Of a stretch of DNA of 38,434 bases, positions 2,004 through 37,379 are shown piece after piece. The notes under the pieces were generated by a model. It ran no database searches and had not been told where the DNA came from. It saw nothing but the letters and a program-made list of their open reading frames with translations. Position numbers and translations under genes: made by a program. The DNA comes from Nemertoderma westbladi. Its lineage: Eukaryota > Animalia > Xenacoelomorpha. Numbering within the stretch: position 1 is the stretch's first letter; the number at the start of each line of letters is the position of its first letter. The stretch is taken from the NCBI GenBank assembly GCA_032718475.1, contig JAUCBJ010000395.1, forward strand, positions 1-38,434, in the 5' to 3' direction.

Positions 2004-3252
2004 AATAGAATAAAAAAATGAAATGTTTTTAATCTCACGCAGGCCGAACTAGGTGGCGCCAAATTTTTTTTTTAATTTAACTGATGATTCTCTTTTCGAT
2101 GGTACCGTATCATTTACTATGTATTTTTCAACACATCCCCCCCCCCCCCCCCCCCCCCACTCTTTAATTATTTCACATGTCTTCTGGTGGTGGGTCATCA
2201 TTTACCTTTTTGATGCATTTTATAATATATTACTTTATTAATTCATAATTCATAAATAGAAGGTATTTAATATTACATACATTAAATTAGAGTTATATTT
2301 CATGTTAAACTGTTGCAGAATATATTAATGACAAAAAATATTGAGGACATTAGAGACATGTACCGGTATAAAATAAGAAACACCATTTTAAATGTTACCT
2401 AATAAATTAAATATTAATTAATATTAATTAGGGGGGGGGGGGGGGGGGGGGGGGGGTACACCAACTCTTCGATTAATCACTCTCAGCATTTCAAATTGTT
2501 TGGTTTTAGATATAATTTGGAATAAAGATACCTAAGGCTTTTACAGTTTTGAATCTAATCACATGAAAGTTTTTTTATATGATAGATTTAAGATGGGGCA
2601 ACATAACTATCAGGCGAAATTTTGTGAAAATAATTCTGCTCCGCTAGGTGGCGCTCCAAATTTATGCTAAGTTTTAGGTTTTTTATATATAGTATTAAAT
2701 TTTATTAACAAAAAATTTCAAAAAGTTGTCTGATACTTTTATGCAGGGTGGACACCCACAGAAAGTTTCAGACTAATTACTCAAAAATTGTAGAAATAGT
2801 AGGGTTTTGAAGTTGACAATTTCATGAAAAAAATATTTGGAGATAATCGACCTTTCATTATACATAGTAATAGTAATTTCAATAGGAATCCCTAAATGGA
2901 AATTTACATAACTTGAAAACTAAAAGAGCTATTAAATAGCGGTTTTCAGATTTGAAAACACAATTTAAACATGTACCGGTCCGATATTATAATCGATCAT
3001 AAAAACAATTTCGTAATATTTTGGACCAAAATGGAGTTAACACCCCCCCCCCCCCCCCCCCCCCCCCCCTTAATATTTCCAGGTACCGGTAAATATAATT
3101 TAGCCAAGAAGCCAAGGGATAAATAAAAAAATATAAAGGGAACATGTCCGGTACAGTTAAACCTGTAATAAAAACAATAACAAAAATGTCAGTCTGACAG
3201 GTTCCGCTTACCGGTACGTAAATGAATTTAATCTTAAATAACTTAGACTTAC

Positions 3253-3957
3253 ATCTTTAGATGGCGTTAGAGACAAGAGATTCTTGTATGAGAATGGATC
3301 GGCGCAACTGAAGTTGGCTGTGTGATGCGAGACGCAGGCGTCCATAAGCGCGGACCTATTTCGGGTCACGAAAGGTACAACCGTTTTATCCTGAAATATA
3401 CCGAAACCGATGCGAAAATTAGATGTTAAAAGTTTCATTTCATCGAATAAATGTTTAGCTAAACGCTGGAGGTTTCCCAGGTCGTCGTCCATCGAGTTGG
3501 AGACGTCCATGAGGAAGTACAAGTCCACCGGGTAGTTCTTAGCTAAACGGACCACCACGCGCACAGTCTCGGTGTCATAGGAACGGATAGACAAGGAGAC
3601 CTCCTGCGGTTTAACCTGAACCGCCTCCCCCGAGTCGCCTCCGGCGTCGGTTAGTTCGCGGTCCCGGTCCACCCGGAGAGTTGTCTTCGGGTTGTGGAGG
3701 TCCGTTCCGTGGCAGCCCCTGGCGATGTGTCGGTGAACTGCGTCGCAGCGAGTGGTGTAGTTAGCGGCAGCGCACCAAGCGCAGTCGGGGTTGGTCCGCA
3801 GACAGGAGGGGCAGGAGTGGGCGGAAGAGCAGGGAGAGGGTTGGGATGCGTCGGTAGCAGCCGGTGGTTTCGTCACCTCCGGAGGTTGCGGTTGCGCCAC
3901 GGACAATCGGTTGCCGAGGGCAACTGACATAACCAATATTATAACAATTGGACACAT
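3253..3957 (-). CDS. ITGB: Integrin beta subunit, coding exon 1 (signal peptide, PSI domain, start of hybrid and beta-I/vWA domain)
   Basis: Hydrophobic N-terminus (MCPIVIILVMSVALG), PSI cysteines (CPSCLRTNPDCAWC), YPVDLYFLMDVSNSMDDD (MIDAS/ADMIDAS DxSxSxxDD), TSNFRIGFGIFQDK; GTAAGT donor after 3253, phase 0. Confidence 0.95.
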
Positions 3958-4929
3958 TTCTAGCGTATGCTGTTATCTATGTCAGTATGTGCGGTGGCCT
4001 AATAGTCTTGCGCCTAACAGCCTAATAGTCTTGGCCTTTCAGCTGTTCAGCCTTTATGCTTTAAGTTAAGCTGTTAAGTATGAAGTAGGCTAGGTACCGG
4101 TATAGCGGAAACCCTACTGCTGTACTAACTGCAGACTGGCAGAAAGTAAGAGCACACTCCTGCAGCATGTACGTACGTCGTACAGCCAGCGCCAGCAGCC
4201 AGGCTGGAATTGCGCACAATGTACGGTGCATCAGTATCATAGTACCGAGACCGACATTCATGTAGGCTTACCTCCTTGTCTGGGATAGAACCTGCTTTCA
4301 GGCTTTAGTAGCCATTCAACATTGTTCTACGATACTGTAATAATAATTACTGAATCATGAATAGTACTGTTGTAGTAGGCCTAGGCTACATTTTCATTGG
4401 ATTCTTATGCTGTTAAGGCTGTAGGCCTAAGGATATCATATCATCATCACAGGAAGTTTAGATTCCTACAAAAGGTAGAATTTATAGTCTAGAATATTTA
4501 ATCAATCAATCAATGCCGTACGGTATGAAAGGATTTGAATAAAGACAATAATGGAATTCTGATATAGGCCTAGTAAATATACTGTGTAGTAAATGAACAC
4601 ACGAGCACACGATCAAACGATGTGGAGTGTGGAGTTAGGCCGTTGCGCAGCACGAGAGGGTATTTGAGATTATTTTGCATAGCTATTAATCCATTTTTAT
4701 TAATCTATATAGCAACTAAACTACTGTAGGTCTATAGTAGGCCTATGTATTGTACTACATCTAGCACATGATACAGTATGTCAATCCATTGTCAGATTCG
4801 AGAACATATATTTTTGCACAGTTATACATTCTGACATTGACATACTGTAAGTATAAGATTATAGGATACTGTTATTACTGTAGTTTAAACTTAATAAAAT
4901 TATTATATAATTCAGTTTGGTATATTAAA

Positions 4930-9419: not shown

Positions 9420-10150
9420 TTCAAGTATTTACTACAGTAGCTACTGTATGATTTAAATCGTATAATACTGAAATTATTTAACTGCTAGAGATACATAAAT
9501 GTGAAAGAATAGACTTACTCACTGACATTGTTAAAGGAAGTGATCTATAATAATACTGTATGTAGGTCTTCAAATATTTCGCCTATTTTAATTGTGTTTT
9601 GCGGTTTGCTATTGGCTATGGTACGAGAGCCGTGTGTACAATAAATGTACAGTATGTTAATAAATGTATCAAAATTACTGTAGGAACATGTTGTATATTT
9701 ACTGTAGATTTTCACAAAATTTGTGAACACTACAGTAAAACTATAAGCATCCAATTACTGTATACCTGCAATCTTGGCAATGCTGAGTAGTAATAGTAAG
9801 AAATCAGCGATGTAACATTGGCAGTTTGAACTGAAACGGACTCAACCATAGACCCAACACTAGCCGCCACTGGGGATAGATCTCGGAACATTGCGGTTGC
9901 ACCTGACGTAGCAACACATATCTAACAAAAGGAAGAAACAAGTTGAATTATTAGATATTAATGAGTGATATTGAATCATGCGGCGTGTCACAAGGTAATC
10001 TACAGTTTAAATTTGCACAATAGGCCTACACATGAAGGTCTATAAACAAACCGTGGCTAAGCACGATGAACTGTAGCTCTGACAATTCGCCCCCAGGGGC
10101 AGATAGAGGAACTGTAAAAGTCTGTCTGTGTGTATAATTTCTAAACTTTT

Positions 10151-11345
10151 TGTAAAAGCTTTTGCGGATATAATCAGTCCCCTTGCCCGCAAAGTACCGT
10201 GTGGGTGTTTTAACGGACATAAAAGTTGTTCTTCTATATGTGTGCTTTGGAGGACATGGCAAGACACAAAACCCGCAATGCGTCAAATCCTCTAGCACAG
10301 TGTAGCCTTGATGATTCAGATTACGACATCTAACAGCTGGTTGCTGGCATGGAAACGGCCGTTGGACACATGGTTCTTTGTTCAGCTTAACAGCCAATCA
10401 GAGCGATTTTTACTTTAGACGTGGAGATATTCTACAGATCGTACTAGGCGTGTTCAGTCTTACAGTGTTAGAGTTTTGTTGTTTCTATCTAGGCCAAGAA
10501 CACCGGCTCTGGAGTCAATTTGTTTCAGACTTTAGAAGAAACATTAGTAGGCTTAGATTATAGAACGTATAACTGTTACTCAACCCAATCAGTTCAGTCT
10601 TACATTATCGGTTCAGTGCACGGTGCAAGTCACTGCAACATACATTATTATACTGCTATTTACTGTTGTCATTATTTGTATCAGTTGGTTGAATATTATT
10701 ACTTGGAGAACATCGATAAATAACCCAAATTTCCCAATTTTCTTGATACACTACAGGTTAGAGAGACAGGTTACATATAGCGATTGCGACTTATATTATC
10801 GTGGTTTGTAGTGAATTTAATGCTATTTGATAGGCACTACATGAGTCAATTGCTGTTCTCTTTATGTATGATAAAATTCATTGACGGTCGGCAGATTAGT
10901 GTGCAGTATTGTGCGGTACCGGTAGTGTGCATGATTGTGGCTGATAACTAAGCATTTCCTAAAGAATGCGCCTCATACGTGAATCATAAGCCTTACCTTC
11001 TTACCGTTGTGTTTAGTATAAGTCATATCTCTGTTTACCTAGATAGAGCGCCACGTCCTAAAGGAACTGTTAATATTTCCCGAAAGTGAATAATATTCGT
11101 CAGAAATTATTTATTAACGATCAATCGAATAATACAGTAAGCTTACACTGCAATAAAATCTAAGCCCTCCGAATCCAGTCTCCCGGGTATATCCAGCGGG
11201 TGAATGGACGCGCACTAGGCTGGCTTCGGCTAATGTTGTGTTTATTGGTATTAAATACTTGTCATATGTTAAAGTCTATTTATAAACCAAAAGACATATA
11301 AATTTTGGCAGGTTAAACTGCTAAAGGTCTTCAAAAGCGCGTACA
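10151..11345 (+). repeat. 5' LTR of BEL/Pao element
   Basis: TGTA...TACA ends with an imperfect 14-bp terminal inverted repeat (tgtaaaagcttttg / caaaagcgcgtaca); by eye it differs from the 3' LTR by about 4 substitutions and 3 single-base indels; AATAAA near 11152. Confidence 0.95.
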
Positions 11346-11407
11346 ATAACAGTTATCTTCTTTATTGCAGTAAGCAATAAAGTTGAAAGTACCGGTCGAC
11401 CGGTAAA

Positions 11408-11573
11408 CCTGAACCGGTACTGCTGTAGGTCCGTAGGCCCAACTGCTTGAACCGGTACTGCTGTAGGTCCGTAGGCCCAACTGCCTGAACCGGTACTGCT
11501 GTAGGTCCGTAGGCCCAACTGCCTGAACCGGTACTGCTGTAGGTCTGTAGGCCCAACTGTCCTAACCGGTACT
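11408..11573. repeat. 38-bp minisatellite, 4 copies plus a partial one, in the element leader
   Basis: Unit gaaccggtactgctgtaggtccgtaggcccaactgc(c/t)t starting at 11411, 11449, 11487, 11525, partial at 11563; no spacers between units. Confidence 0.9.
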
Positions 11574-11744
11574 TCCAGTATAAGTACATTAGTATTATTC
11601 GATTTTGATTATTGTATATCGGTAGGTCTTAGTACTTAATCAGGGAACGGCCGCCCTGGTTTTTTATTGAGATTTTACTTATTTCTGTCGGTTTTATTTA
11701 CATGTAAGTTAATATTGAGCAGAAGACGTGTAAGTCTGCGCAGA

Positions 11745-12330
11745 TTGTTCAGATAATTGTAGGCTGGACTGTTGTCGGACTGTTGTTGGGTCTGGAGAGA
11801 TTGCGGCGTGTGTAGAGTCTGTCCGATAAAGTGCCAGTTAGTAAGTTGGGGCATCTTGAGTTGTAAGGTCAACCCCCTCCTAAAGAATAAGTCGTACTAC
11901 CGTGTTAGAACGCATACTAACTAACCATTTTGGAATCTGCATATACTGTAGTTTATTTAGGCTTGATAGTAGTCTACCAGCGTTTTAGCCTGTGTTTGTT
12001 TGTGTGGTCTGTTCAGGTACCGTAATAGTTATTACTCAGATATTTTGTAGGCTGGATTGTTGTCTGGCTGTTGTTGGGTCTGGAGAGATTGCGGCGTGTG
12101 TAGAGTCTGTCCGATAAAGTGCCAGTTAGTAAGTTGGGGCATCTTGAGTTGTAAGGTCAACCCCCTCCTAAAGAATAAGTCGTACTACCGTGTTAGAACG
12201 CATACTAACTAACCATTTTGGAATCTGCACATACTGTAGTTTATTTAGGCTTGATGGTAGTCTGCCAGCGTTTGGTTTGTATTTTGTTTGAGTATTCTGT
12301 ACGGGTAGCGTAATATTTATTATTCAGAGT
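11745..12330. repeat. 288-bp tandem duplication in the element leader
   Basis: tgttgttgggtctggagagattgcggcg... at 11781 recurs at 12069; ~200-bp core nearly identical, edges diverged. Confidence 0.85.
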
Positions 12331-13630
12331 TTATGCGATTATTCGCAACATTCATGTCCCCAAGTTTATTCCTACAGTAATTGTGCTTGTTACACATACC
12401 GTTATAGTTAAATTAACCCCGGTACTACACGGGCTGCTTGGCGTAGGTAAAGACTGGTGACTTTGTGCTCCGGTCACTCCAGCAGATGCCGTGGTTCTTT
12501 TAACTGTTCAAGTATATTTAACTGCTAGTTATCTGTTTTTAATAAGTACTTGTACCTAATTTAGGGTTTGGTGTACAGTGCTTTCCGAAAGTAATTAGTG
12601 TGTAGGCAGTGTATTGTGTTGTAAAGTGGTTAATAGGCACGTTGGATCTGGTAGTCCGCGGTAATTAACTTCCAGGTAGGAACACTCCGTGATACATAAC
12701 GTAGTACCTATAGCGATACGGCTATAGGTCGTCAGACGGTGGTATTTTTCCTATCTGGACAGCGCAACATATTTACTACTACTTATTATTTTCAAATACC
12801 GTAGTACCCTGTCCGTTGTAATAACCAGAATTCTAACCCTTTGTTAGGCTGGTTTGTAGACTTCCTGTAAAATTACCCTAAAATTTCGTACGTAATATTT
12901 TTGTTGTGTTTAGTTAGAGAATTAATCTCACCAGTATCGTAAGTAATTCGTAGATAAGTAACTTAGGAAGTAGAATTATCTGTTTTAGTGTCCAATAAGT
13001 AGCACTTCACTGAGAGCGCACAGCTTCTGTGTAGTGATTATTTCCCAGAAATAGTAACATCTATTTCAATATTGTAACAAAACCCCTCATACGGGTATAT
13101 ACATATATATATATCTATTATAAATCAACTCAAAGGTTTATAAGCGAGTAGGCCTGTCATACAACAACTAGGTCTCAATATCAGTTGGACTACTGCTTAA
13201 ATAACGGTAATAAAGTAAGTTAAAGTAACCAAGTAACCCTAAAATTTCAGAAATTCAATTATTCTAAAATAATTGACATACCGGTATTTACCATAGGCTT
13301 ATTATATTTATTTCTATAAATTTGGGCTGAAATCATACCGGTATTCTGTAATTAATTCTAGTTCATAATTATACTTATATATACTATAAGTGTAAGCTGC
13401 ATACCGGTATTCACGATAGGCCTATTATATATTTATATATATTTGTGCTAAAATTATATACCGGTATTCTGCGACAAACCTAGTCTACAATACTTATATA
13501 TACTATAAGTGTATACCGGTATTCTAATATACTGTAATAAATTACCGGTACTAGGCCAACGGTCATACTGAATTACTAGACTTGCTTTAACTGTAACTAT
13601 AGCAGTAAGCATTCAACTGTATAGCTAAGC

Positions 13631-16600
13631 ATGTCTGACACTAAGCAAAACCTGTCAGACAGTCTAATCGATACAACCATCTGTGACACAGATAGGAGTG
13701 TGGAGCGATTAAGAAAAGGGTTCAGCTCACCTCCTACTGAAAGAAAGGTCATCCCTCCAGTAGTAGTATCAGACCCTAGGCTAATCCAACACCGTAGGTC
13801 TATCATCGGCACTCGGGCCCAGGTCAAACGGAACCAAGAAGCAGCTGTCCAACAGCAGCAACATCCTAGTCAAGAAACTCGTTCCCAGCGACCCGATAGC
13901 TCCAGTAGTTCGGATACTGTAGAGCTGACCCCCGAACGCGGAGTGAAGATGGCGGATACAGCCTATTCGGATCCCCTTCTCACTCTTCCTGCCGCAGTAC
14001 TAACAACGATATTGATTGCGGTGGAGGAACACCAAGTCGATTGGGCGAGAAGTAAGCGAGCGACCCAAGATAGTTATGCGGGATACGCGGAGCGAGTACC
14101 GGAAGGAACACCAGTAACTGAGAGAACGTATTACTTAACACATCATTATGTTCCCAAACCCGGTAAACCCCATGAAGTACGAGTCGTATTCGATGGCTCC
14201 GCTCTATATATGGGCCAATCCCTCAATTCCGAGTTGTTACCAGGACCCAACTTACTCCAATCTTTGTTGGGAATACTTTTAAGATTAAGACAATATTCCA
14301 TCGCGTTCGCCTCCGATATAGAAGGAATGTTCTTACAAGTCAAGGCGCTGGATAGAGATAGAGACAGCCTAAGATTTCTGTGGTGGCCTGAAGGAGATCT
14401 CAACCAGAAACCGGTAGAGTATTGGATGACCATCCAGGCTTTTGGGATCATATCAAGCCCTTCCAATGCCTGCTCCGTGGTGCGGACCACTGCGAATGAC
14501 AACCGAGACGCCTTCTCCAAAGAGGTGATAGACAACATCAAGCGCGATATATACATGGACGACAATTTAAAGTCCCTTCCATCAGTAGAAGAAGCCATTG
14601 ATGTCGCAAAAGGAATGGTAGAGTGTTTGAAAAGAGGTGGATTTCGACTGACGAAATTCACCAGCAACTCCCGTGAGTTTCTGGAAGCGATACCGGTAGA
14701 AGACCGAGGAACGAAAGACCTAGACTTAATAAAGGACGATCTTCCAGAAACCAAGACGCTTGGCTTGAAGTGGGACACAGAAAGAGATATCCTGTTTTTT
14801 CAGCTAAAACAGCGAGATAATCCAGTTCGGACCAAACGGATTTGTTTAAGTATCCTGAGCACTTATTTCGACCCATTGGGATTTATTAGCCCAGTTATAT
14901 TGATTGCTCGGAGTTTAGTACAACAAATGTGGCTTGAAAACCACTCATGGGACGATCCACTTAAGGGAGAACTGTTAAAGAGGTGGATGAAATGGGAAGA
15001 TTCTCTACCTGCCATCGAGAGCTTTGTAATTTCCCGTGCATATTTTGGTCATGTTCTCCCTACGTATTCCTATCAACTCCATGTGTTTGGAGACGCCAGC
15101 GACATGGGAATAGGTATAGTAGCATATCTGCGAGTCGAAACTCCGGATGGAATCAAAGTCGCCTTGGTTACCTCTAAGGCATTGATTAACAACAAGTTAA
15201 AGGTTCCTCGAGCGGAGTTAAAAGCGGCTTTATACGCTACAGCCATCGGCCGGAACGTAACAGAACAAATCGACTATCCACTGGAGAAAACTGTTTATTG
15301 GACCGACGCTTTACTCGTGTTGGAGTATATAACCAATGAAGTCTGTCAGTTCAGCGTTTTTGTTACTAACAGGGTAGCTATTATTCTTAGTCGCACAAAG
15401 ATAGATCAATGGAGACATTGCCCTGGTACGATTAATCCAGCCGATATCGCCTCCAGGGGAGCGACTCCACAGGAACTGATAGATACTCCAGACTGGTTGG
15501 GTGGACCCGACTTCCTGAGTAAGGAAGAGGATGAATGGCCTCCTCACCTTACTACGGCGGAGATTAGACAAGCCAAGGGAGCGGAGAAAGTCAAACCTAA
15601 AACCTGGGCGAGTAAATCGAAGTTATTTAAACCGACGATCGATCTATCTGTATTACATACTTCCGGAAACGATGCTTCGGATCCACAATCCCTCGCCACA
15701 AATAAGTCTGTTGTGGAAATTAGAGATAGAGATTGGAAATCTGGAATACCAGACGTCTCGCAAGGAATCTCACCCCTGCTGCAGAGAGCAATGCATCACT
15801 ACAGTTCCTGGAATCGGCTCTGTAAAGCCGTCACATATTTAAGGAGATGTTTTCATCATCACTACTCCAGGACGAAGACCATTAGTGATACCGCTCCATT
15901 GACATCTGCGCAAGTTCATGTTATTAAAAATTTACCCAAATATAAGACATCCGACCGGTTCCTAAAGGAGAAAATCAGTTACCAGGAGCATGAAGAAACC
16001 AATAAGCAGATACTGAGACTCCTGCAATGCTATGAGGATTCCAATAAGTATTTCCTGTTGTTGAGAAATCCGCAGATGCGCTTAAGGGATCGCTTCTCTA
16101 GCACAATGATAGATGGGTTAATACGTGTTGGAGGAAGACTCACCAATGCGCCATTATCCTTTGACACTAAATTCCCCATACTCATTAGAAATCTTGAAGT
16201 ACAAATCAAGATGATTGTAGATGTTCACAGTAAACTTTATCATGCTGGTAGAGAACGAGTTCTTAGCGAAATCCGAACTCGCTATTATTTTTATAAACCC
16301 CGTAGAGCTCTGAACCAAGTTCTTAGGAACTGCATACCCTGTAGGAAAGCATTCAGTAGGCCTTTAACACAGTGAGAGGCAGAATTACCTAGGGAACGAG
16401 TAAGCTTCTATGAACCACCTTTTACTAATACTGGTGTAGATTTATTTGGCCCTATTGAAGTATATCGTGCTAGGACTATAGTCAAGAGATGGTGTGTCAT
16501 CTTCGTATGCATGACTTGTAGAGCCATCCATCTCGATATGGTGAACGATCTGTCTACCAACAGCTTCGTCTTAAGTTTACGCCGACAGATCGCTCGCTTC

Positions 16601-17437
16601 GGGACTAGTAATACCATGAGATCGGATAAGGGAATGAACTTCATTGGTGCCAACAACGAAATCCAGGCTTACGTGAAGGACTGGAACCAAAGACAGGTGG
16701 ACGATCAGCTAAGGATAACAGCATCTAGCTGGACCTTCAACGCCGCCGACGCCCCTTGGTGGGGAGGAAGTTGGGAGAGATTAATTAGAAGTGTCAAGAC
16801 CGCATTTCACTTTATAGTGCCATGCCGCGCGTATCTCACCGACGAACTTTTGCAGACGTTAATGGAGGAAATAGCTGCCTATCTCAACGAGAGACCGCTT
16901 ATGCCAGTCTCATCGAGTCCCGATTCCCTGGAAGCGCTAACACCCGCGCACTTTCTACTGAAGAAACCTGTAGCCATGCTCCCACGATCGGAGATTGCCG
17001 ACGGAGACGAATACTGCCGTCGAACTTGGCAACTTATGCAGTTGCTATCCCGTCGTTTCGCTGACCATTTCGAGAAACATTATCTGCCCACGCTACAACT
17101 TCGAACTAAGTGGTTTGCGCAGCAAGAAAACGTCAGCGCCGGAGATATGGTGCTTATTGTAGATTCAGACCTTCCACGTAAACGGTGGCAGACAGGTCGT
17201 ATCATCGAGACTCACATCTCGGATGATGGTTTAGTGCGCTCGGTAGAACTCGTCGTCATGCGGCGTAACTTCAAGAAGCCAGGCATAATCTTTGAGACGC
17301 AACAGCTCAACCGCCCAGTTGGTCGTTTATGTTTACTGGAAAGAGACCGAGAACTCTCCGGAAACTATGGAAGGCAAGACACTCTTCCCACGACCACCTC
17401 CCTAATTCCTCAAACATCTAGGGACTCCCCAACGTGA
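13631..17437 (+). pseudogene. pol: BEL/Pao pol (short gag N-terminus fused to RT, RNase H/Pao A17 region, integrase, C-terminal DUF5641-like region), one in-frame TGA at 16373-16375
   Basis: VRVVFDGSA...SLNSELLPGPNLL, SDIEGMFLQV, YMDD; LHVFGDAS, PRAELKAA, YWTD, NPADIASRG; integrase HHCC (HSKLYH...CIPC) and D-D-E (GVDLFGP, RSDKG, WERLIRSVK). ORFs 13631-16375 and 16511-17437 share one frame. Confidence 0.95.
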
Positions 17438-19056
17438 TACGTCTGGAGTGGGTGCATGACTATATTATTCTATCTATTTTTATTATTTTTATATGCGAAC
17501 GTTATTATGTATTTTATTATAATCGTTTTATTTAATTTTATTTAGTAGAATGTTATTTTAGATTATTTAGTAGGTTAGTGCAATATATTAGTGTTTATTA
17601 CGTAATTACACATAATATATATTTAATATGATGGCGAGAAATAATTCTTTCTTTTTCCTTACTGTCCGTATTATATTATAAATACGAGACTACATGTAAG
17701 ATGACATGTCAATACTTATTAAAGTACAATAAAGCTCCTACTATATTTAAGTATTATTGGTAGGCAGAGTATTAGGAATGCAAAGTTCAGATCCTCGTGT
17801 CTCGGCTAAACCAAGCTCTGGGTAGACCTTGGAAACGACTTGCCTCTTCACACTGACATTGCTTCGTGCGATATTGCTCTTCTACTTTATATTAAATAAT
17901 ACATATAGTAGCGTGATGTCCCTATAACAGTAGCGTAAAACGCAAATAAATCTGTTAAACCTTTTGACCATCTGTAATTTTAGTCGATTAAGATATCGCG
18001 GCACCCACCGATATACTTGAAAGACAAATTCTAGAATCAGTGGTTAACGTCCCCAGACAAGTTCTGGAATAAATCGGTGCCTATCTTAAATATTAATGTA
18101 ATATTTATTAAAATCTGTAAAATACAGATCCTTTAAAATTTCTAATCAATTAAGATATCGCAGCACTTACCGATATTCTTAAAAGACAATTTTATAGAAT
18201 TAAGGATCCTAGGTCCCCAGACATGCTCTGGAATAAAATTGTGTCAATTTTACCATCAAATAATAAAATTCACGGGAATAAATTTAAATTCATATCTTAA
18301 ATGAATTTCATAAATTGTCATTTTGTGCAATTTATAACATTCCCAAAATTCCATTAATTAATAGATCATGGGAGCGGAGATTCATCCTATTGAGCGTATT
18401 AGAGTACGAGAATCTCCAACATATAGTCAATAGCCGATAAAATTAATAAAATCATGCATAAAGAGGATATTGACAATTAAAGAATTACTATTAAATAGCA
18501 TTCCAGATCTGTATGCATGAGAATTACCCTAATTCTACCGCTAGCTTTCCATAATGTCACCATAGCAACACCCACGCTAGAATTAGAAGCAAGTTAAAAG
18601 AACAATAGAAAGCTTGTCCCATTGCATAGCATAGAGAATACATAGCACACGGTTAGTATCCAAGGATACACAGTAATAACGTGACATTCTGGAAGGCACT
18701 GACTAACGGACAAATGGCCTGTATGTGTACAATTGGAGACAGTTGTGTGGAATTTGTGCGTTTATAGGTGAATGTTACTGCTAAAGTGTGTTTACAGTAG
18801 CTAGTCGCAATTGTGAAAGTAACCCTAACTCTACTATAGAAAGAACCTAAAGTGGATTCAAGCCTTTGGGACGGACAGTGGAGTGACTTGTGCCGGTTAT
18901 CGTTGTCGTGCTGTTGCTACATGTTGGCGTAAACACCGCGACAATGGTACATCGGCGCTGAGAATCCCACTGTCCGGGGGCAAAGAAAGGTAGGCAGCAA
19001 CGCCCGCTCGCCTAAACATAAACTCATTATAATATTAATAAACCCAAATAGCAGAT

Positions 19057-22000
19057 ATGACGGAGTTGATAGAAGATGATCTTGGTATCAGGGAGCGATA
19101 TACTCTACCTTTACAAGCATTTGTGGATAGCTTGATACGCGGTGAAGCCGATCCAACCATTACGGAGGACGATGGTCGTTATATCGAACCGCCGATGTCC
19201 CAAGAGCAACTTACGCGTGAATTGGACTATCGAAAATTCACCGCTCGCTATACGCATCGTAATGGTACGTATATGGACTTCTTAACTACCGGCCATCCTA
19301 TCGATTTACATGATACGGACGATGTAGACACCGAAAGGGAAATGGTTCTATTTAAATATCATACCCAGTGGAGTCGTAACGATAAACCGAGAATAGAACA
19401 CGAAAATTCTATTCGCAACAGACTGGAAAGAGAAAACGTTGAAGAACCGGATAAACGCATCGACTTCAACGACTACCTGGAATTTTTGAGAGAAACCTAT
19501 CTCAACATCGCCAGTCAGCAGAACCTAGAGACTAGCTATCCTCAAGGTATACATCATGACCCTATGGTAGAACTCAAACGGCTCTATTTCACTATGATGT
19601 ATCTTACCGCCGATCGTCCACTACCTGTTATCCCGGATAGTTTTGAACAAATGGAAGAATATTGCAAAACTGGAGAACGATCACCCGCGTTTCCTCTACA
19701 GGACGTACTTATTATTGTGACGAATGCCCTAGACCCAACCAACAAACTGAAAGACATAAACATCCGCGGAGACGTTGCGCTAAACACAGCTTTACGCGTT
19801 ATACTTACGGGAGTTTCGAGCGAAACCTGTTCGATGTATCACCTACGATCGCTCGTCTTAAACGATCACTAAATAAACCTATGATCAGAGTTCCGGAATA
19901 CTCGGTCAGGCCTCCTCATTCCCTAGTGAGACCTCAAACTCTTGATCCTAACAGTATCACTGATCCTCCCGAACTATATTCCCTGTTCAAAGATTTAGTG
20001 TTACCCGAACGATTAATCGGTGGTGCTCCGGTAGTGGGTTCGTTAGACATTCGCCCATCCTACTTAGCCGGATTGGGACGCGGGCATCTAATATCACCAT
20101 TTGATCCTTACAATCGTCCAGGATTAAACCCAATGCAACCCGCCACGGAAGTCGAGGAGAGCGTTATAAGAAACGCTTTAGACGCTATTCGACAGAAGAT
20201 CGGAAAGGGAACACAAGATTGTTTAGAGAAACGTAAATTACAACAACAAGTCCAATCGGTGAAGGAGTTAGCCTTGCCACAGTTCGATAGAGAAATCCAA
20301 AACCTCGAGGAGGACATCGAGCTTGGACGCACGTATTCTCTACAAGAGTTTCTAGATGAATGCTTACAGAGACAAGCGGAGGAAAATCTACTCGAGGAGA
20401 AACACACTAAATTGGACGAGAGAGAAGAAGCCGCTTTAGCCCAACCCGAAGCTCAAATCCTTATGACAGATCTCTACTCTAAAACCATCCGTCATCCCTC
20501 GATGGTTCCACATTTCGGAGACAAACTCTTCGCGACGATACAACCCCAACCGGTTGATATCAGTACAGGATCGCAAAATCTTATCGCTGACACCCCTATG
20601 TTACAGCGTCCGCCAATCGAGGCTGCTCGTGTTGACGGTATACTCGTTGAACCTCCGGACAATCGAGCGGATCTTGTCCGTCGTATGGTACACGATGTCA
20701 ACATACGCGCTAGACCTTTACAGAACTCGTTTTATGGGATCAAAGACCACCCTTATTACGTTAATCTGACTCAATATTATATGGTAAAACCAGAAGACCC
20801 GACGCATAATTTAAAGTTTCTACCACTAATAAATCCTCTAGACGTTGTCGAACTCGAACAATTGCAGAAACATCTGGATCAGTTAGTAAAGGTAAACTCA
20901 TTCAGAAAACCATATAACATTTCTCGAATCGAGAAGGATATAGAACCTCCTTATAATCTCGATGGATTTATTAAAACTCGATTAGTCCATTGGAATCTAG
21001 ATGTATTATTTGAAGAAGAGAAAATACAAAGATATGGAAATGTGGAGACGTATACCACTCGGTACATGAAGTATAGTGATCTCCCTGACGCCAACCAATG
21101 CGCCACCTTGTGGCATCCAGTAGGGATGACCCTAGAGAACGCCACCAAAGAGTGGAATGAAACTCTTAATGTCATTGAGATGTATGGAGTTGTCACCTAC
21201 GATAATGAAGGTAGCGTTCCGGTCGGAGAACTAGGAACTACGCGCATGATCCACATACGCGGATTAGCTGGTTCTACCCACGTGTTTACTCGAGCGTGTT
21301 CCGACGTGATTGATTATTCCTTTGAAACTCTCACCGAAACGCAAAAGAATCTCCGACATGGACAATTCGAACTCGCGCAGCGTTACGTCATTGACACCGA
21401 ACGCAAACCGGCCATGGGTATCGATGGATCGATGTTACCCCAGCCCGTACTCGAGATGTTGTTCAACGAAAGAATCCTTAAAATCGGCTCAGCTGTTTAT
21501 GGAGATCTCCAAAACGACTTTCGGAATATGGAAAATATCCCATATCCTTTCGTGGATACGCAGCTGATTGCTCCCTGGGCAGAAGGTCGAGGTTTCTTTC
21601 GCACCATGTATGCTAATACGTCCAGCAACATTACAAAGGTGCAATGAACTTCCATCGGACATCTTGCCTTTCAGGAATACGGATGGAATTTCAAAGTCGG
21701 AAATCCCATCAACTATCAACAAGTATACGGAGACCATTATTCTCGATTATACTTTGATGGACCATTGACCGCACCTGGCGCCGTGAATAGCTTCATGAGT
21801 GTTCCACTCCGTCCCTCCTTAGCTATCTACACGATCTTTGAAAACACCGCACTTTCCGGTTGGCTACCCGATGTGTGCAGTCGCACTATACGCGCCCATC
21901 CATTAATACTTGGGACCAAACTCGCTAAGCTAGATGAACATAATAAATTCATCCGCTTCGAATGTTTTCGGCGATTTTTAACCCCGTTCCGCAACGTGGA

Positions 22001-23303
22001 TAGCCAATTTAAAGACCGCGCTTTGACCAAGCTCAGCCTAAGAAACTCAGCTGCAGAGAAGTTAGATAGCGCTGGATTTGCCATTTTCAAAGAGATTTGT
22101 ATATCGAACTTGCACTCCTCTGTTATACAAAGACCTCGAATCCCCACAGGTTATTCTGTCGTGGAAATTCAGACAATAGGTCCACTTGAAGAGACAGACA
22201 TGCCCACCTCAGCTATGCACTGGGAAGACGAACCAATATGCCTAGAATCTGAGGAGATTCAGCCTATCGCGCCCCGGAACAGCGACAACGATTACATCCT
22301 AGAATGGTATCAAGGTCCACAGTGTCTCACTGCGTACGATTATCACCATGCCAACTATGTTTCTCGGCAACGTTGTCGGTTATGCGCATCGAGAGACCAT
22401 GTTACGCCCATGGACACAAACGTCCGCTGTTCCTATTTCCACGAACAACCGGCGATGGAAATTTATTGCGCATATTGCAGACTCAATAACTTGCATATTT
22501 TTGCGGTTTGCCCTCAATTTATGACTCAATGTCACCATTGTCAACTAAAGGGACACGCCAGTTTCGATTGCCCTTTTAATCACGATTTGGAAAGCGTAGA
22601 TGAAATGATCACACTACGTTACATCAGAGCTTGGGAAGCGAACGCTGATTTACATTGTGATTCGCGCCATCGCTATTATCCTGGACGCGCTTACGAAGGA
22701 GTTTATGCGTTCCATCCTTATCTATTCGCTTCTGTCGAACAGAAATCACGCATATCGAGTTACGAACTACTGAAGCGCGTCGGAGAATGTATTTCAACCA
22801 AATTCGTACGCAAATTTCTCAGGAGTGTTAATCCTAGCGACCTTCATTCCTATAACTTAATCAATTTTATCCATCAGGATCCGGACTATGGAGACTTATT
22901 TGTTAACTCACGCCCCGAGTTACAAGAAGTATATCGACGGCCTTACGAATACCGAGCCCACGAACGCGAGTTGGAAAGAACCATTAAACCCAGGAAGTTC
23001 CTGACTGCCTATGGTCCACCCACGGCTCTCATTCAGACCACTCGTAAAGGACCCGTAAGAGCGGCCGTCCTAAAACGCGCTCTAAAGGCCGTTAGACCCC
23101 TCTCCCCCGACGTTGATGTCAACCAACCCGGCACTTCGACCGGCGGATACACCGACCATAATCCTACACCCTCTGATGAAATCATATTGCACCCTTCACC
23201 CAGGAGTTATAGCCCTCCTTGTAAAGTGGCTCGCCCCAAAGAGAAAAGGACTCTGGCCAGCTTTAAAAAACTGTGTAAACGCCATCCGCGCAAGAAAGAC
23301 TAA
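19057..23303 (+). CDS. Retrotransposon-borne extra ORF (~1415 codons when repaired): unknown N-terminus, coiled coil, DEDDy 3'-5' exonuclease-like domain, three zinc knuckles, basic tail; one frameshift (~19800-19815) and one TGA (21645-21647)
   Basis: ORFs 19662-21647 and 21765-23303 are in the same frame with only one TGA between them; 19057-19872 overlaps in another frame. ExoI VVTYDNEG, ExoII LPQPVLEMLFNERILKIGSAVYGD...FVDTQ, SIGHLAFQEYG, ExoIII-like PLRPSLAIYTIFE; CRLC..H..C, CAYC-x5-H-x4-C, CHHC-x4-H-x4-C. Confidence 0.8.
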
Positions 23304-23380
23304 CTGTTTAGAGTATTTACGTATATTAGAAACTGTGATTTTGTATATTTATAGACTTGAATCCCATTTTCTGGGAGCGG

Positions 23381-24576
23381 TGTAAAAGCTTTTGCGGATA
23401 TAATCAGTCCCCTTGCCCGCAAAGTCCCGTGTGGGTGTTTTAACGGACATAAAAGTTGTTCTTCTATATGTGTGCTTTGGAGGACATGGCAAGACACAAA
23501 ACCCGCAATGCGTCAAATCCTCTAGCACAGTGTAGCCTTGATGATTCAGATTACGACATCTAACAGCTGGTTGCTGGCATGGAAACGGCCGTTGGACACA
23601 TGGTTCTTTGTTCAGCTTAACAGCCAATCAGAGCGATTTTTACTTTAGATGTGGAGATATTCTACAGATCGTACTAGGCGTGTTCAGTCTTACAGTGTTA
23701 TAGTTTTGTTGTTTCTATCTAGGCCAAGAACACCGGCTCTGGAGTCAATTTGTTTTCAGACTTTAGAAGAAACATTAGTAGGCTTAGATTATAGAACGTA
23801 TAACTGTTACCAACCCAATCAGTTCAGTCTTACATTATCGGTTCAGTGCACGGTGCAAGTCACTGCAACATACATTATTATACTGCTATTTACTGTTGTC
23901 ATTATTTGTATCAGTTGGTTGAATATTATTACTTGGAGAACATCGATAAATAACCCAAATTTCCCAATTTTCTTGATACACTACAGGTTAGAGAGACAGG
24001 TTACATATAGCGATTGCGACTTATATTATCGTGGTTTGTAGTGAATTTAATGCTATTTGATAGGCACTACATGAGTCAATTGCTGTTCTCTTTATGTATG
24101 ATAAAATTCATTGACGGTCGGCAGATTAGTGTGCAGTATTGTGCGGTACCGGTAGTGTGCATGATTGTGGCTGATAACTAAGCATTTCCTAAAGAATGCG
24201 CCTCATACGTGAATCATAAGCCTTACCTTCTTACCGTTGTGTTTAGTATAAGTCATATCTCTGTTTACCTAGATAGAGCGCCACGTCCTAAAGGAACTGT
24301 TAATATTTCCCGAAAGTGAATAATATTCGTCAGAAATTATTTATTAACGATCAATCGAATAATACAGTAAGCTTACACTGCAATAAAAATCTAAGCCCTC
24401 CGAATCCAGTCTCCCGGGTATATCCAGCGGGTGAATGGACGCGCACTAGGCTGGCTTCGGCTAATGTTGTGTTTATTGGTATTAAATACTCGTCATATGT
24501 TAAAGTCTATTTATAAACCAAAAGACATATAAATTTTGGCAGGTTAAACTGCTAAAGGTCTTCAAAAGCGCGTACA
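23381..24576 (+). repeat. 3' LTR of BEL/Pao element
   Basis: Direct repeat of 10151-11345; preceded by PPT-like GGGAGCGG (23373-23380). Confidence 0.95.
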
Positions 24577-25295
24577 CATAGGAAGATCTACAACTATCTC
24601 ACTCATCTCAGACAGAAAATATTGTTTCATTTGATTTGATGGTGGGCCTAAATCCTTGGGCCCACAGGTCGATTTCTTCGCATTTCGCAGCTACAGACTG
24701 ATACAGAGCTGCACCTGCATTTAATTAATATATCAGCCTAGCGGAATCAATGAGGAGTATGGTGGCTTATTTGGGCAAATTAATTTTATTTATTTTATTG
24801 ATATGTTTTTTTTTTGGCTTGTTGGTCTTGGTAGTTAGCTGAATTATCAAATTATTTAACCGATAGAAAGCCGCCCCAATATTAGATTATAAAAACAACA
24901 TTTCCATTGGGTAAGAAAGTGGAGGAGAGCCAGCCCGACTTTTAATTAAATTTTATATTACGCGATCAATTTTCACTCGTCATGAAACCTAACATGTACT
25001 GATGTATGTGAACCTTTTGTTAAATTTGTTGGCTGTGCGTTGGCGGCTGTTTGGGCGGGGTGTGGTACACTTTTCACACTGAAACAATAGGGTTGTGAAA
25101 TGTTACAGGGATCCAAGATATTTCATTTATATTTTATTATGAGAGGAATTTTGAACAAACAACGTAATTACTGTATGTAACGAAATAATTGTTTTGGGGT
25201 TTAACTTGAAATCCTCCCCAAATATTTAATATATATATATCTATTTAGATATCAGGAACAAGATGGGTACAGTACGACCTGACCTGACTGGCGAA

Positions 25296-25896
25296 ATATA
25301 TAGAAACAATGTGATCCAGTCTCCTATCAAAAATGAAACCTAACTACAAATAAACACTTTAATAACTGCACGAATAACTATCCTATATATTAGAAAATAC
25401 AGCACTTTTAGTCCGCCGAAAGGGGTAACTCTACATACTAAATTTGTTAAAAATAAAGGGTTTCAGGATTTAAACACTGTACCCGGGGAAACCGTGCAAT
25501 ACAGCCATTATAGATTTATTTGTTATTTTATTTAGGCTTAGTGGTATCAGTTTTTGGGTTTCATCTATTTACTACTAATTTGTTGTATTTCTCTATTTCA
25601 GTATTTTTGGTTTCATTTCCTGTATTATATTGGTCAATTGGTACTGTGCCGTATTTAGATAGGGTAGGGACTCACAGTACACTGCTGATGATGGAGCTGT
25701 GTTTCCCCGGGTACAGTGTTTAAATCCTGAAACCCTTTATTTTTAACAAATTTAGTATGTATACTTACCCCTTTCGGCGGACAAAAAGTCCTGTATTTTC
25801 TAATATATAGGATAGTTATTCGTACAGTTATTAAATGTTTATTTGTAGTTAGGTTTCATTTTTGATAGGAGACTGGATCACATTGTTTCTATATAT
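25296..25896. mobile_element. Foldback/MITE DNA transposon with ~196-bp terminal inverted repeats in a TA-repeat context
   Basis: 25296-25492 is the near-perfect reverse complement of 25701-25896; AT-rich ~210-bp spacer; both ends abut (TA)n. Confidence 0.85.
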
Positions 25897-27009: not shown

Positions 27010-27585
27010 TCTCAATGAGTCCACTGTATTCATAAATTTTTGGGTCCGGCCCAACCATATAGAATAGGATATAGGCCTATGTAGCCAAACGTCTCTACAG
27101 CTCCAGGCTGGACTACTGTAAGTAGTCTATGGTAAAGTTGAAATACTTAGCAAGCTTCCGTCCTTCTGCCAAATCAGCTCCTGATGATCCATCTAAGCTT
27201 GCAGCTTCGAGGCGGTACGGTTGGTGCAGGTAAAGTCCCACACAGGGTTTATTTCCATTTGACCATGGGAGCAGTGTGGCGGCTACATCAGGTCGCTTTA
27301 GGTCGTTGTTGTTGATAAGCTGACTGGCACAAGTGTGGCGGGTACCTCAGCGGATTGGAGAGCACAGCCCACAGGCGGTGTCGTGCGTGTCTGCTCTTGG
27401 CAAACTTGCAGATTAAAGCATGGCTGGCTGAACCATCAACGACGGCACCAGTGGTGCCGTCGTTGATGGCACCACAAACACAACGGTGGGTAGAGCAAAC
27501 AGGTGCGCCAAGACGGAGAGCAACAGTCATACCGAACTGTTCGTCAGTAAGGCTGAGGCCAATGATTGTAGAAGGGATAGCATAT
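27010..27585 (-). mobile_element. Decayed CRE/HERO-like (restriction-like endonuclease) non-LTR retrotransposon, 3' part
   Basis: YAIPSTIIGLSLTDEQFGMTVALRLGAPVCSTHRCVCG...HALIC...RHARH (zinc finger), then frameshifted KRPD...LPWSNG...VWDFTC (PD-(D/E)xK RLE motif). Confidence 0.75.
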
Positions 27586-29915
27586 TCTGTTTCGTAGGAA
27601 ATACAGCAGCTCTATACAAGACTGTAATGCATTTACACTTCAACCCTTCTCCAGTGATCACCGCCTTATTGTGGCCAAGGTAAGACTTAGTCTGCGTGCT
27701 AGCAGAACAACGAAATCTGCCTTGCCGCGGCATGACTGGTCCTCTCTGTTGCAACAGCCAAGTGTGAGATCCAGCTTCACACTACAGCTGAGCAACAGGT
27801 ATGAGGCTCTTGCCTCTGAAGCGGCAGATCACTGTGAGGGCTATACTGCCTTTACAGAAGCAGTTAAGTTAGCAGCTGCAGAAACAGTTCCTGTATACCC
27901 TCGAAACAGGAAAAGGGCCCCCTGGACTGACAACAAAATTCAGAAGTGCCGAAATGACCTTCATAAGGCGCAGAAAGAGTCCCGACTCAAACAGACTACA
28001 GCGGCCAAGAATGCAGTTAAGGCTGCATCTAGGTCCCTGAACAGGCAGTACTCTGTTAATCTACAGGAGCTAATAAACCAACAGGTTGATGCCATCAATG
28101 ATGCTGACGACAGCAGGCAATCATCCCAGGCATGGAAATCGATCAATTTGCTTACTGGGCGGAAAAGCCAACCAACCACCAAGGTTAAGGCTGAATCACC
28201 AGCCGATCGCCTCAATGGTTGGAAAGCCCACTTTGAAAAGCTCCTAAATAATGACAGGGTATTGCCTGATAACTTTATAGAAGTAAAAGTGTCTGAGTCT
28301 GTACTCCCAGATATTCCCATTGGCGATATCTCCTTTGCAGAAGTGAAGGCTGCTGCAAAGAGCATTAAGACCAATCGTGCCAGTGGAGTAGATGGTGTTC
28401 CCCCTGAGGTCTTTAAAATACCTGAGTGTTTAAAGCTCATCTATCCCATCATAGTAGACATGTACCGAACAACAAGAGTCCCACAAGAAATGAAAACAAA
28501 TAAGTTGGTGCCAGTTCCCAAGAAGGGCAACCTAACACTCTATGGTTCTTTTCGGGGAATCTCATTGATCTCGATTGCTGCAAAGCTATACAATAGGATT
28601 CTATTAAATCGCATTAGGGATCCCATTGAGAGACTGCTCCGTGGAAATCAGAATGGGTTCCGTAAAGGTCGTGGGACCATGGAGCCCATTTTGGCACTTA
28701 GAAGGATAATTGAAGAATTATCAAAAAAGACAGGCATCTGGCTGTTATCTTTGTTGACTTCTTCAAGGCCTTTGATTCAGTCTCTCGCTCACGTATGTTC
28801 AGCATACTTTCATTATATGGGATTCCTGATGAAATTATTGCAGCAATCAGATCAGTATACGATGGTTCGACAACATTTGTGTCTACTGTTGATGGTGACA
28901 CAGAACCATTTGAAGTGTTATGGGGCGTCCTCCAAGGAGACACACTTGCACCATTCTTGTTCATTATTGTGGTTGACTATGTTCTACGCATGTCCTTAGA
29001 TCATCATAATGATGATGGGGTGATGATAACTCCACCTACTGGCTCCAGAAGTCGAGGAAATCCTGCCAAGTACCTACTGATCTAGACTTTGCTGATGACT
29101 TTGGAGTACTCTCAGAATCATTAGAGGGAGCCCAACGGCTCCTCAGCTCATTAGAACATGCTGCTTCTAGTGTTGGTCATTTTATTAACTCCAGAAAGAT
29201 CAACATTTTGACAGTTAACTTTGAAAGTCCTCAGCAAGTCTCTGATCGGATGAGCATAAGCTCAAAGGATGGTATGCTTGAGCATGTGGACGACTTCTGT
29301 TACCTGGGATCATGGATCCGGAAGTCAGGTGAGGACCTTCGAATACGTAAGGGAAAGGCATGGGCAGCCTTGAATAGGCTTTCCAGGATTTGGAAGTCAC
29401 CGAGAATTAATCGGAAACTTAAGGTCCGATTATTTAGAGCAGCAGTAGTTCCAGTACTCCTCTACGGGAGTCCATGCTGGGCTCTAACTGCTGAGGACAC
29501 CAAATCTCTGGATGGCACATTCACAATAATGCTACGCCGGGTTCATTGTGTCAAGTACAATGCACACATCTCCAACCAGACACTATATAACATTGGAGGT
29601 GTCTCATTGGTTCCCCCAAGCTTGACACTAGAACAAAATCGCCTCCGCTTTGCAGGACATTGCTTTCGCCGTGAGGACCAGCCAGCGCATAATCTTGTAC
29701 TTTGGCAGCCTCATGGAGTGAATAAGCATGGTGGACAGCCCATGACTTTCTTGAGACGCATCTTAAAGGACACTGTCCTTGAAGATGCGGATGATCTAGC
29801 AAATGTCATGGGTGATAGGGAGTTGTGGCGGTGCAATTTTGTTGACAAGCCGGCACAGCATTCTTAAAAATGCAGCTGCAATGCAGCATGCCGATACTAG
29901 TAGTAGTAGTAGTAG
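27581..29915 (+). mobile_element. 5'-truncated RTE-like LINE with two frameshifts and a (TAG)6 tail
   Basis: Begins in the APE endonuclease end (HILFRRKY...SDHRLIVAKVRL); RT motifs FRGISL, QNGFRKGR, VDFFKAFDS, GVLQGDTLAPFLF, DLDFADD, YLGS; frameshifts at ~28725 and ~29077; stop at 29865-29867; TAG repeats 29898-29915. Confidence 0.9.
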
Positions 29916-36553: not shown

Positions 36554-37093
36554 TTAAGAGGGAATAAAGTGTTGGTAGTAATTCTTTGTTATATCAATCA
36601 TTAAATCTTTGGTACATTCGGGTAGTTCCTCGTAAGGAGCGGAAGTTGTCCCAGAGAAGAATGACAATGGTGGGATTACAGTTTCGGGAGGAACAATAGA
36701 GCCCTCGGCTATAGCGCAGCATTCTTTAATAATGCATCTGCGCCCGATGATAGAACCCTTACCGATATAACAATAGGAGCCAATGTTAGCAGCACTTATA
36801 ACGCAATCGCTCTCGATAAATACGTGGTCGCCGATGTGTAAAGGAAAAAAAGAAACCCCTTTCGAGAATTTCTTGAAAGACGGCCGTAGGACTGTGTTCG
36901 GGTTTATAACACAGTGTCGTCCGATTCCGATGTTCGCCAGATCGCCACGGATAACGCAGTCTCGTTGTATCACCGTCTTACCGTTTAGCGTTATGTTCTG
37001 ACTGCCGCACAGTATAGATTGTCGGGAAACTTTGTTTCCTGACGCCGTTTCAATGAAGTCGGCACGACTGTACTTAACATCGCCCAATTCCAT
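36554..37093 (-). CDS. DCTN5: Dynactin subunit 5 (p25), intronless, 179 aa
   Basis: [40 protein letters not shown]...IRGDLA...[25 protein letters not shown]...ELPECT...YY; left-handed beta-helix hexapeptide pattern; ATG at 37093. Confidence 0.96.
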
Positions 37094-37379
37094 TACAGCA
37101 ACTGGATTACAACAGTACAATCAATTCTGCAATCAGTCAGTCATACAGCAATAAAGTGGCATGTCAACGGATCACAGCTCTTCAGTGCAGTGCTGTATGC
37201 TGTCTCGGTACCGGTAGGCTTATGGTTGTGCTTTACAGCTGTCAGACTGTCCCATTATACAAAACTAAACACAAATTAGAAGTGCTAATTATATGCTGAA
37301 CAATTAATTATTCAGCCTACTACAACTGTACATTGTCACACAATTATACAACTACAGTACATACAACTACAATTAAAGT

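Follow-up and report, generated by a model that had tools for sequence, protein, structure and literature searches.

A selected gene for a putative DEDDy exonuclease in a BEL/Pao retrotransposon copy that lacks gag

Introduction

BEL/Pao retrotransposons (Belpaoviridae) have genomes of 4.2-10 kb, are primed by a transfer RNA (tRNA), and are credited only with env-like third genes (PMC8742986, and the portion of PMC3118150 drawn on here). Their gag encodes capsid and nucleocapsid, their protease is part of pol, and their primer site comprises 18 nucleotides (nt) that pair with the 3' end of tRNA-Arg or tRNA-Gly; their replication has been called poorly understood (PMC8742986). Here we analyse a member of this group in a 38,434-nt stretch of DNA from Nemertoderma westbladi (assembly GCA_032718475.1, contig JAUCBJ010000395.1, positions 1 to 38,434 of the forward strand), which we refer to in full as the window. 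Between pol and the 3' long terminal repeat (LTR), the element carries an extra gene that very probably encodes an RNase D-like exonuclease domain of the DEDDy type, together with three zinc knuckles.

Exonucleases of this type have been found in mobile elements before. As far as the extracts cited here go, the rotifer Gypsy-type LTR elements Juno and Vesta, as well as Terminons, carry DEDDy open reading frames (ORFs) with a DEED motif, whose activity has not been shown (PMC5408684, PMC6431247, PMC6338049), and the Dada DNA transposons of Laccaria and Ectocarpus carry a DEDDy exonuclease for which a function in 3'-end processing during transposition has been proposed (PMC3706591). An earlier note on this DNA, made from the sequence alone, had mentioned the capture of DEDDy genes by rotifer retroelements, as is described in PMC5408684. 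The surprise that it attached to the finding is, however, reduced by the third ORFs of rotifer LTR elements and Terminons and by the DEDDy domain of Dada (PMC5408684, PMC3706591).

The closest described counterpart of the extra gene is the DEDDy ORF3 of bdelloid rotifers, which is likewise RNase D-like, takes the place of env in an LTR element, has no membrane segment, and retains its acidic residues with one D-to-E change (PMC5408684). Compared by description, the present case differs in its D-E-D-E motif (as opposed to DEED), in its BEL/Pao pol, in its three CCHC knuckles and long N-terminal part, and in the absence of gag and protease; moreover, its copy number is very high, whereas the rotifer families are low in copy, and purifying selection is seen within one species (PMC5408684). 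Dada resembles the element in that a mobile element bears a DEDDy exonuclease, but there the domain lies inside a DDE transposase, whereas here it belongs to a separate retroelement gene (PMC3706591). With Belpaoviridae the element shares the order of reverse transcriptase (RT), RNase H and integrase, the Pao-type domains, LTRs of up to 1.2 kb, a polypurine tract and an optional third gene; it departs from them in its length of 14.4 kb, in lacking gag and protease and apparently a tRNA-type primer site, and in the putative exonuclease nature of its third gene (PMC8742986).

What appears to be new here is that a gag-less, high-copy BEL/Pao element carries exonuclease cargo under selection, while DEDDy third genes as such were already known from rotifer elements. 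In the literature searched, to which subscription journals, Repbase, Dfam and supplements did not belong, no BEL/Pao element was described as carrying an exonuclease gene. The earlier DEDDy third genes belong to low-copy rotifer elements in which selection or benefit could not be demonstrated; here the carrier is of a different LTR superfamily, and its abundance exposes selection. This argues that LTR elements depend on nucleases of this kind and acquired them on more than one occasion. It also provides a system suited to separating the processing of an element's own RNA, counter-silencing and RNA binding, and the gag-less, protease-less build with its non-standard primer site is a second oddity for the BEL/Pao group.

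Results

Kinship of the exonuclease domain

The motifs from which the earlier note had proposed a DEDDy exonuclease lie where it had placed them. The ExoI region contains VVTYDNEG (21189-21212), with D at 21201 and E at 21207; the ExoII region reads LPQPVLEML...YGD, with its D at 21504, and is followed by VDTQ at 21552 and by SIGHLAFQEYG from 21651; the ExoIII region has Y at 21828 and E at 21840. The fourth acid is thus E, as opposed to the D of the family pattern Y-x3-D. We also considered VIDTE as an alternative D-x-E of ExoI and rejected it, since its distance from ExoII is too short and the alignment pairs it with a later strand.

Among 1.84 billion representative proteins we found a sole homologue of the domain at an expectation value (E) of at most 0.001. 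This protein, P0003 (E 2.2e-4, 29% identity over the domain), has the same exonuclease motifs, including E as the fourth acid, along with three knuckles and a basic tail. Its knuckles align with those of ORF B, the frame that holds the domain (Table 1), at a score that 0 of 3000 shuffles reach. Its domain has 25 of 30 Atlas matches in the PF01612 set (score 0.94), and its gene sits on a single 9449-nt contig. Word-indexed homologue searches returned nothing besides P0003, and neither rotifer sequences nor eukaryotic EXD, WRN or Mut-7 sequences were among the matches of any of these protein searches. In the metagenome and viral contigs scanned there were no related loci, and no second BEL/Pao element with an exonuclease gene.

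Family models match the domain faintly. The NCBIfam RNase D models TIGR01388 (E 0.003) and PRK10829 (E 0.024) match the ExoII stretch, both far under the model cut-offs; a PHROGs family named 'exonuclease' reaches only E 0.31; and a plasmid tblastn search gave one RNase D among four matches, at a non-significant E of 3. A profile made from the ORF B and P0003 domains has matches at E<=0.05 in 32 bacterial genomes out of 201, each at a single place, and all 30 of the 30 places that were fetched are RNase D-family genes. We also built family profiles without these 30 profile-picked loci. The RNase D profile (20 rows) scores the ORF B domain at 17.9 bits, which none of 2000 shuffles attains, and the profile of the whole set (50 rows) also places it above all 2000; the corresponding HHalign probabilities are 88.9% and 93.2%. 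In an alignment with trimmed family rows (58 of 78 kept, standalone short members left out), all 60 aligned rows share the residues D, E, D and Y, and this places ExoI and ExoIII.

A structure prediction had also been proposed as a check, and its outcome is divided. The single-sequence prediction is unusable, with a predicted local distance difference test (pLDDT) score of 31, but the alignment-guided model, with a mean pLDDT of 60 and a score of at least 70 for 104 of 259 residues, is nearest to RNase D (Foldseek E 1.2e-3, with no structure at E<=0.001; Z 15.6, root-mean-square deviation 3.1, 163 residues aligned). Nibbler, Exd1, Rrp6 and Egalitarian are among its fold neighbours. Among the cellular DEDDy proteins RNase D, EXD2, Nibbler/Mut-7, WRN exonuclease, Rrp6, Exd1 and Egalitarian, it is RNase D against which the ExoII stretch scores and which the alignment-guided model resembles. 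From these proteins the domain differs by an identity under 22%, by two insertions, by E as the fourth acid, by its attached knuckles, and by the lack of an HRDC match: a profile built on the tails of 53 bacterial RNase D proteins found none after the exonuclease (E 0.13), although a distant HRDC could have escaped it.

Taken together, the NCBIfam matches, P0003, the two-sequence profile and the shuffle-tested RNase D profile sustain the proposal of the earlier note, and we regard a DEDDy, RNase D-like assignment as very probable. In our judgement the domain is probably catalytically active.

Abundance and selection

Four public runs, three of them from organism A (two studies), one of which may be the source of the window, were aligned to positions 9500-25500 at 85% likeness. 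In all three organism A runs, the extra gene has a summed contig depth of 1e5-1e6 and the left flank one of 27-113, a measure which is not a copy number. Single contigs inside the extra gene have about 460 times the depth of the flank in run X3, and 73 times in run X2. The family is likely to be present at hundreds of copies or more.

This abundance allows a test of selection, for which we took positions 21180-21860 (681 nt) in two runs and retained differences at a share of at least 35%. Nineteen differences are listed, none of them an indel. The TGA at 21645-21647, which interrupts ORF B, is missing from more than 99.9% of the summed depth in both runs, and is therefore private to the present copy. 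With the row for this stop left out, two rows are near-fixed against the present copy (one of them synonymous) and 16 are segregating. Of the segregating differences 15 are synonymous, against an expected fraction of 0.23-0.30 (p<=1.5e-7), and the ratio of non-synonymous to synonymous rates (dN/dS) is roughly 0.02-0.03, values to be read in the light of the share filter, the shared ancestry of subfamilies and the extent of 681 nt. A ratio below 1, which the earlier note had named as a check on its proposal, is thus what we find. The five catalytic codons are untouched by any listed variant. We conclude that the exonuclease core is under purifying selection, and that the gene is cargo of the family and not a one-off capture.

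Run X4, which carries the label of a second organism, also contains the element with its extra gene (10034-24985). Its depth there is low and neither outer flank bin is covered; this may reflect a related species or carried-over DNA.

The carrier element

The assignment of the carrier to BEL/Pao, made in the earlier note, holds: pol domains of this type lie between near-identical LTRs (Table 1). The Pfam matches are PF05380 (E 3.3e-36), PF17921 (E 3.5e-7) and PF18701 (E 6.6e-21), with a weak RVT_1 (E 0.09), and the BEL/Pao order of RT, RNase H and integrase is present. LTR length and the purine run agree with the BEL/Pao range of 0.2-1.2 kb with a polypurine tract. The two LTRs differ by four substitutions and three one-base indels and are 99.4% alike; since they are nearly identical, the copy is young.

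Several features absent from the earlier note set this copy apart, namely the missing gag, protease and target-site duplication and the apparent lack of a tRNA-type primer site. The longest stop-free stretch on the plus strand of the leader (11346-13630) is 53 amino acids (aa), and no gag was found there. No protease was found either, the D[ST]G motif being absent from all six frames of the element. The codon usage of pol is coding-like from 13631, and its own Met is followed by a short unrelated N-terminal part. The copy is without gag and protease, and it is excluded as an autonomous BEL/Pao member, while a non-autonomous derivative is compatible with what we see. In the public runs, the gag-less leader is covered as deeply as other parts of the element.

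Despite the likeness of the LTRs, no target-site duplication was found at the element flanks (10151 and 24576), and both near flanks are at single-copy depth in the runs; this may have arisen when two insertions recombined, or through a join made in assembly. The TGG with which a tRNA-type primer site starts is absent after the 5' LTR, and no tRNA gene lies within the window. Instead, positions 11347-11356 are perfectly complementary over 10 nt to 10569-10578, 418 nt inside the LTR, a match reached by 30 of 3000 shuffled LTRs and by 1 of 400 leader 25-mers. We regard this pairing as a possible self-priming site, a post hoc lead at about p 0.01. Elements of the Tf1 type self-prime through comparable LTR complementarity. 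Among the literature matches listed there was no BEL-specific report of self-priming. The spacer downstream of pol (17438-19056) ends in CAG two bases upstream of the ATG at 19057, which is a possible splice acceptor.

Table 1. Positions of features in the window
Feature	Position	Strand	Description
5' LTR	10151..11345	+	1195 nt, TGTA...TACA
Non-coding leader	11346..13630	+	2.3 kb, tandem repeats, at the usual gag/protease position
Primer-binding-site position	11347..11356	+	no tRNA-type TGG start; 10-nt perfect complement of LTR 10569-10578
pol	13631..17437	+	own Met, RT, Pao-type RNase H region, integrase zinc finger, integrase core, DUF5641
pol in-frame TGA	16373-16375	+	splits pol between integrase zinc finger and core
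Non-coding spacer	17438..19056	+	1.6 kb, ~162-nt repeats
ORF A	19057..19872	+	271 aa, no known family; separate gene or front of the exonuclease gene
ORF B	19881..23303	+	about 1140 codons: predicted coiled-coil, exonuclease, linker, three knuckles, basic C-terminal tail
Putative RNase D-like DEDDy 3'-5' exonuclease domain	21105..21881	+	acids at 21201, 21207, 21504, 21840; Y 21828; two insertions
ORF B in-frame TGA	21645-21647	+	single stop breaking ORF B in the present copy
Three CCHC-type zinc knuckles	22374..22571	+	Cx2Cx4Hx9C, Cx2Cx5Hx4C, Cx2Cx4Hx4C
Purine-rich run	23373..23380	+	adjoins the 3' LTR; probable polypurine tract from its position
3' LTR	23381..24576	+	1196 nt
Host gene stretches	2-1117; 3208-3972 (minus); 36554-37120 (minus)		integrin beta, dynactin subunit 5 (Pfam)

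Frames and layout of the extra gene

From stop to stop, the three frames reported earlier run from 19042 to 19872, from 19647 to 21647 and from 21648 to 23303, and the last two are indeed one frame with a TGA between them. The stop of ORF B ends at 23303, which is 77 nt from the 3' LTR and 69 nt from the purine run, in keeping with the roughly 70 nt that had been given. The proposal that all three make up one gene of ~1400 aa stands for the shared frame with its one TGA, but is not confirmed for the join to ORF A. ORF A has its own ATG (19057) and its own stop (19872), and the ATG of ORF B (19881) follows nine bases on. Codon usage cannot place a switch between the two frames (best score 5.8, against 5.0 with no switch). 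Their overlap contains no strict slippery site, and no stable fold that could signal a programmed frameshift lies nearby. Among the 12 of 160 indel rows listed from the runs none falls in the overlap, a hint that the frame change is common to the family; two overlap variants are synonymous in frame B only, a hint that frame B is coding already upstream of its ATG. One protein of ~1400 aa, or two genes of 271 and about 1140 aa, fit these observations equally well.

ORF A has coding-like codon usage and no match in Pfam, PHROGs or NCBIfam; its best Atlas match, at 0.80, is uninformative. The zinc knuckle of the earlier note proves to be three knuckles of the CCHC type, starting at 22374, 22467 and 22530, with weak profile matches (Pfam zf-CCHC_3, E 0.073; Air2, E 0.024). 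The gene had been held not to be env, and the sequence agrees: no membrane segment is found across the three frames, where the highest 19-residue hydropathy is 1.0-1.15, and Pfam contains no env family that matches.

The observed/expected ratio of CpG is 1.26 in the extra gene (19057-23303), 0.93 in pol and 0.75-0.79 in the flanks; the extra gene may owe its higher value to a separate origin or to having been spared the decay caused by methylation.

Discussion

Proposed processing of the element's own RNA or cDNA

We tentatively favour the reading that the protein acts on the element's own RNA or complementary DNA (cDNA) ends during copying, because selection is strong in a many-copy family and because the element has no nucleocapsid of its own and apparently no tRNA-type primer site. 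On this reading, the extra gene would be expressed in the manner of env genes, through splicing or an internal transcript start; the knuckles would bind single-stranded RNA, as they do in nucleocapsid and Air proteins; and the exonuclease domain, active with E as its fourth acid, would trim the 3' ends of RNA or cDNA intermediates, its substrate being the element's own primer or template end. Capsid and protease would be borrowed from a helper family.

A number of observations weigh against this reading, or against the identification of the domain on which it depends. Pfam, which the earlier note had named as a check, gives no exonuclease for the domain at E<=10, and neither PDB sequence searches nor two-row profile searches match a nuclease. 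Two smaller family profiles, of the four that we built, are weak (HHalign 1.0% and 17.6%). Scored separately, only ExoII is significant; ExoI, matched by 2075 of 5000 shuffles, and ExoIII are not. The model contains two low-confidence insertions in addition to the unusual fourth acid, and its fold match is partly circular, because it was built on an alignment rich in RNase D. Selection is seen for 681 nt only. In the listed rows of the whole-element comparison, five of seven in pol are synonymous but only three of ten in ORF B past the overlap; that is, seven of the ten best-supported ORF B rows elsewhere are non-synonymous, although these are nearly all changes peculiar to the present copy and are little informative. 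The self-priming hint is post hoc, at the p of about 0.01 given above. Finally, no helper family was seen, in a comparison at 85% likeness that would miss a more distant one.

Alternative roles

A second possibility, which we consider open to real doubt, is counter-defence: an active RNA exonuclease, possibly nuclear, would attack host silencing RNAs (Piwi-interacting RNAs, small interfering RNAs or their precursors) and so permit a high copy number. The great abundance of the family speaks for this, as do the fold neighbours Nibbler, Exd1 and Rrp6 (subject to the circularity of the model), the weakly Air2-like knuckles, and the basic C-terminal tails of the ORF B protein and P0003, which could be import signals. 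Yet the rotifer DEDDy ORF3 shows no clear link to copy number, and small RNAs there cover every ORF type, as far as PMC5408684 is cited here. Furthermore, a suppressor that acts in trans would help all copies and should relax selection, and selection is nevertheless strong.

It is also conceivable, but unlikely, that the protein is a catalytically weak or dead RNA-binding adaptor that protects or transports element RNA, in the manner of Egalitarian, Exd1 or Maelstrom. Both the ORF B protein and P0003 have E as the fourth acid, the insertions are large, and the fold matches include Egalitarian and Exd1. Egalitarian works without catalysis. The same holds for Maelstrom and EXD1 (PMC5408684, in part). 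Against this stands the retention of all four acid positions and the tyrosine in two proteins that are only 29% alike, together with the absence of listed variants from the catalytic codons, and an enzyme acting on the element's own RNA or cDNA remains our preferred reading.

The 3' gene might instead replace gag: a shell or scaffold would come from ORF A or from the first part of ORF B, a nucleocapsid from the knuckles, and the family would be autonomous with reversed gene order. We find this improbable. In its favour are the lack of gag and protease upstream of pol, the Met of its own with which pol begins, a gag-less leader covered to the same depth as other parts of the element, and the match of the P0003 knuckles to retroviral nucleocapsids; but no part matches a capsid family (Pfam, PHROGs, NCBIfam, and Atlas for ORF A), P0003 ties the knuckles to the exonuclease module, and a distant helper would escape the comparison at 85% likeness. 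About as improbable, in our estimate, is a more radical reading in which a whole BEL/Pao family does without gag, protease and tRNA priming: it would prime on its own LTR, use the exonuclease-knuckle gene in place of gag for the particle or ribonucleoprotein and for finishing the primer, and need no helper to attain hundreds to thousands of copies.

That a host gene was captured just once, or that the gene belongs to a separate nested element, is largely refuted and very improbable: the depth of the gene is below that of some non-coding parts, and a low-depth contig joint skips 20404-23141 in three of four runs, but the gene has no introns, no nested repeat pair surrounds it, its depth is thousands of times that of the flank, and it is under purifying selection.

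Neighbouring features

Downstream of the element, positions 25296-25896 hold an element of ~600 nt resembling a miniature inverted-repeat transposable element, with long inverted arms that are 96-98% complementary, and run depth nearby is high. A broken element with a non-LTR-type RT follows at 27581-29867 (RVT_1, E 1.6e-7; DUF6451). The host genes of the window are an integrin beta with long exons and dynactin subunit 5, which is a single open frame.

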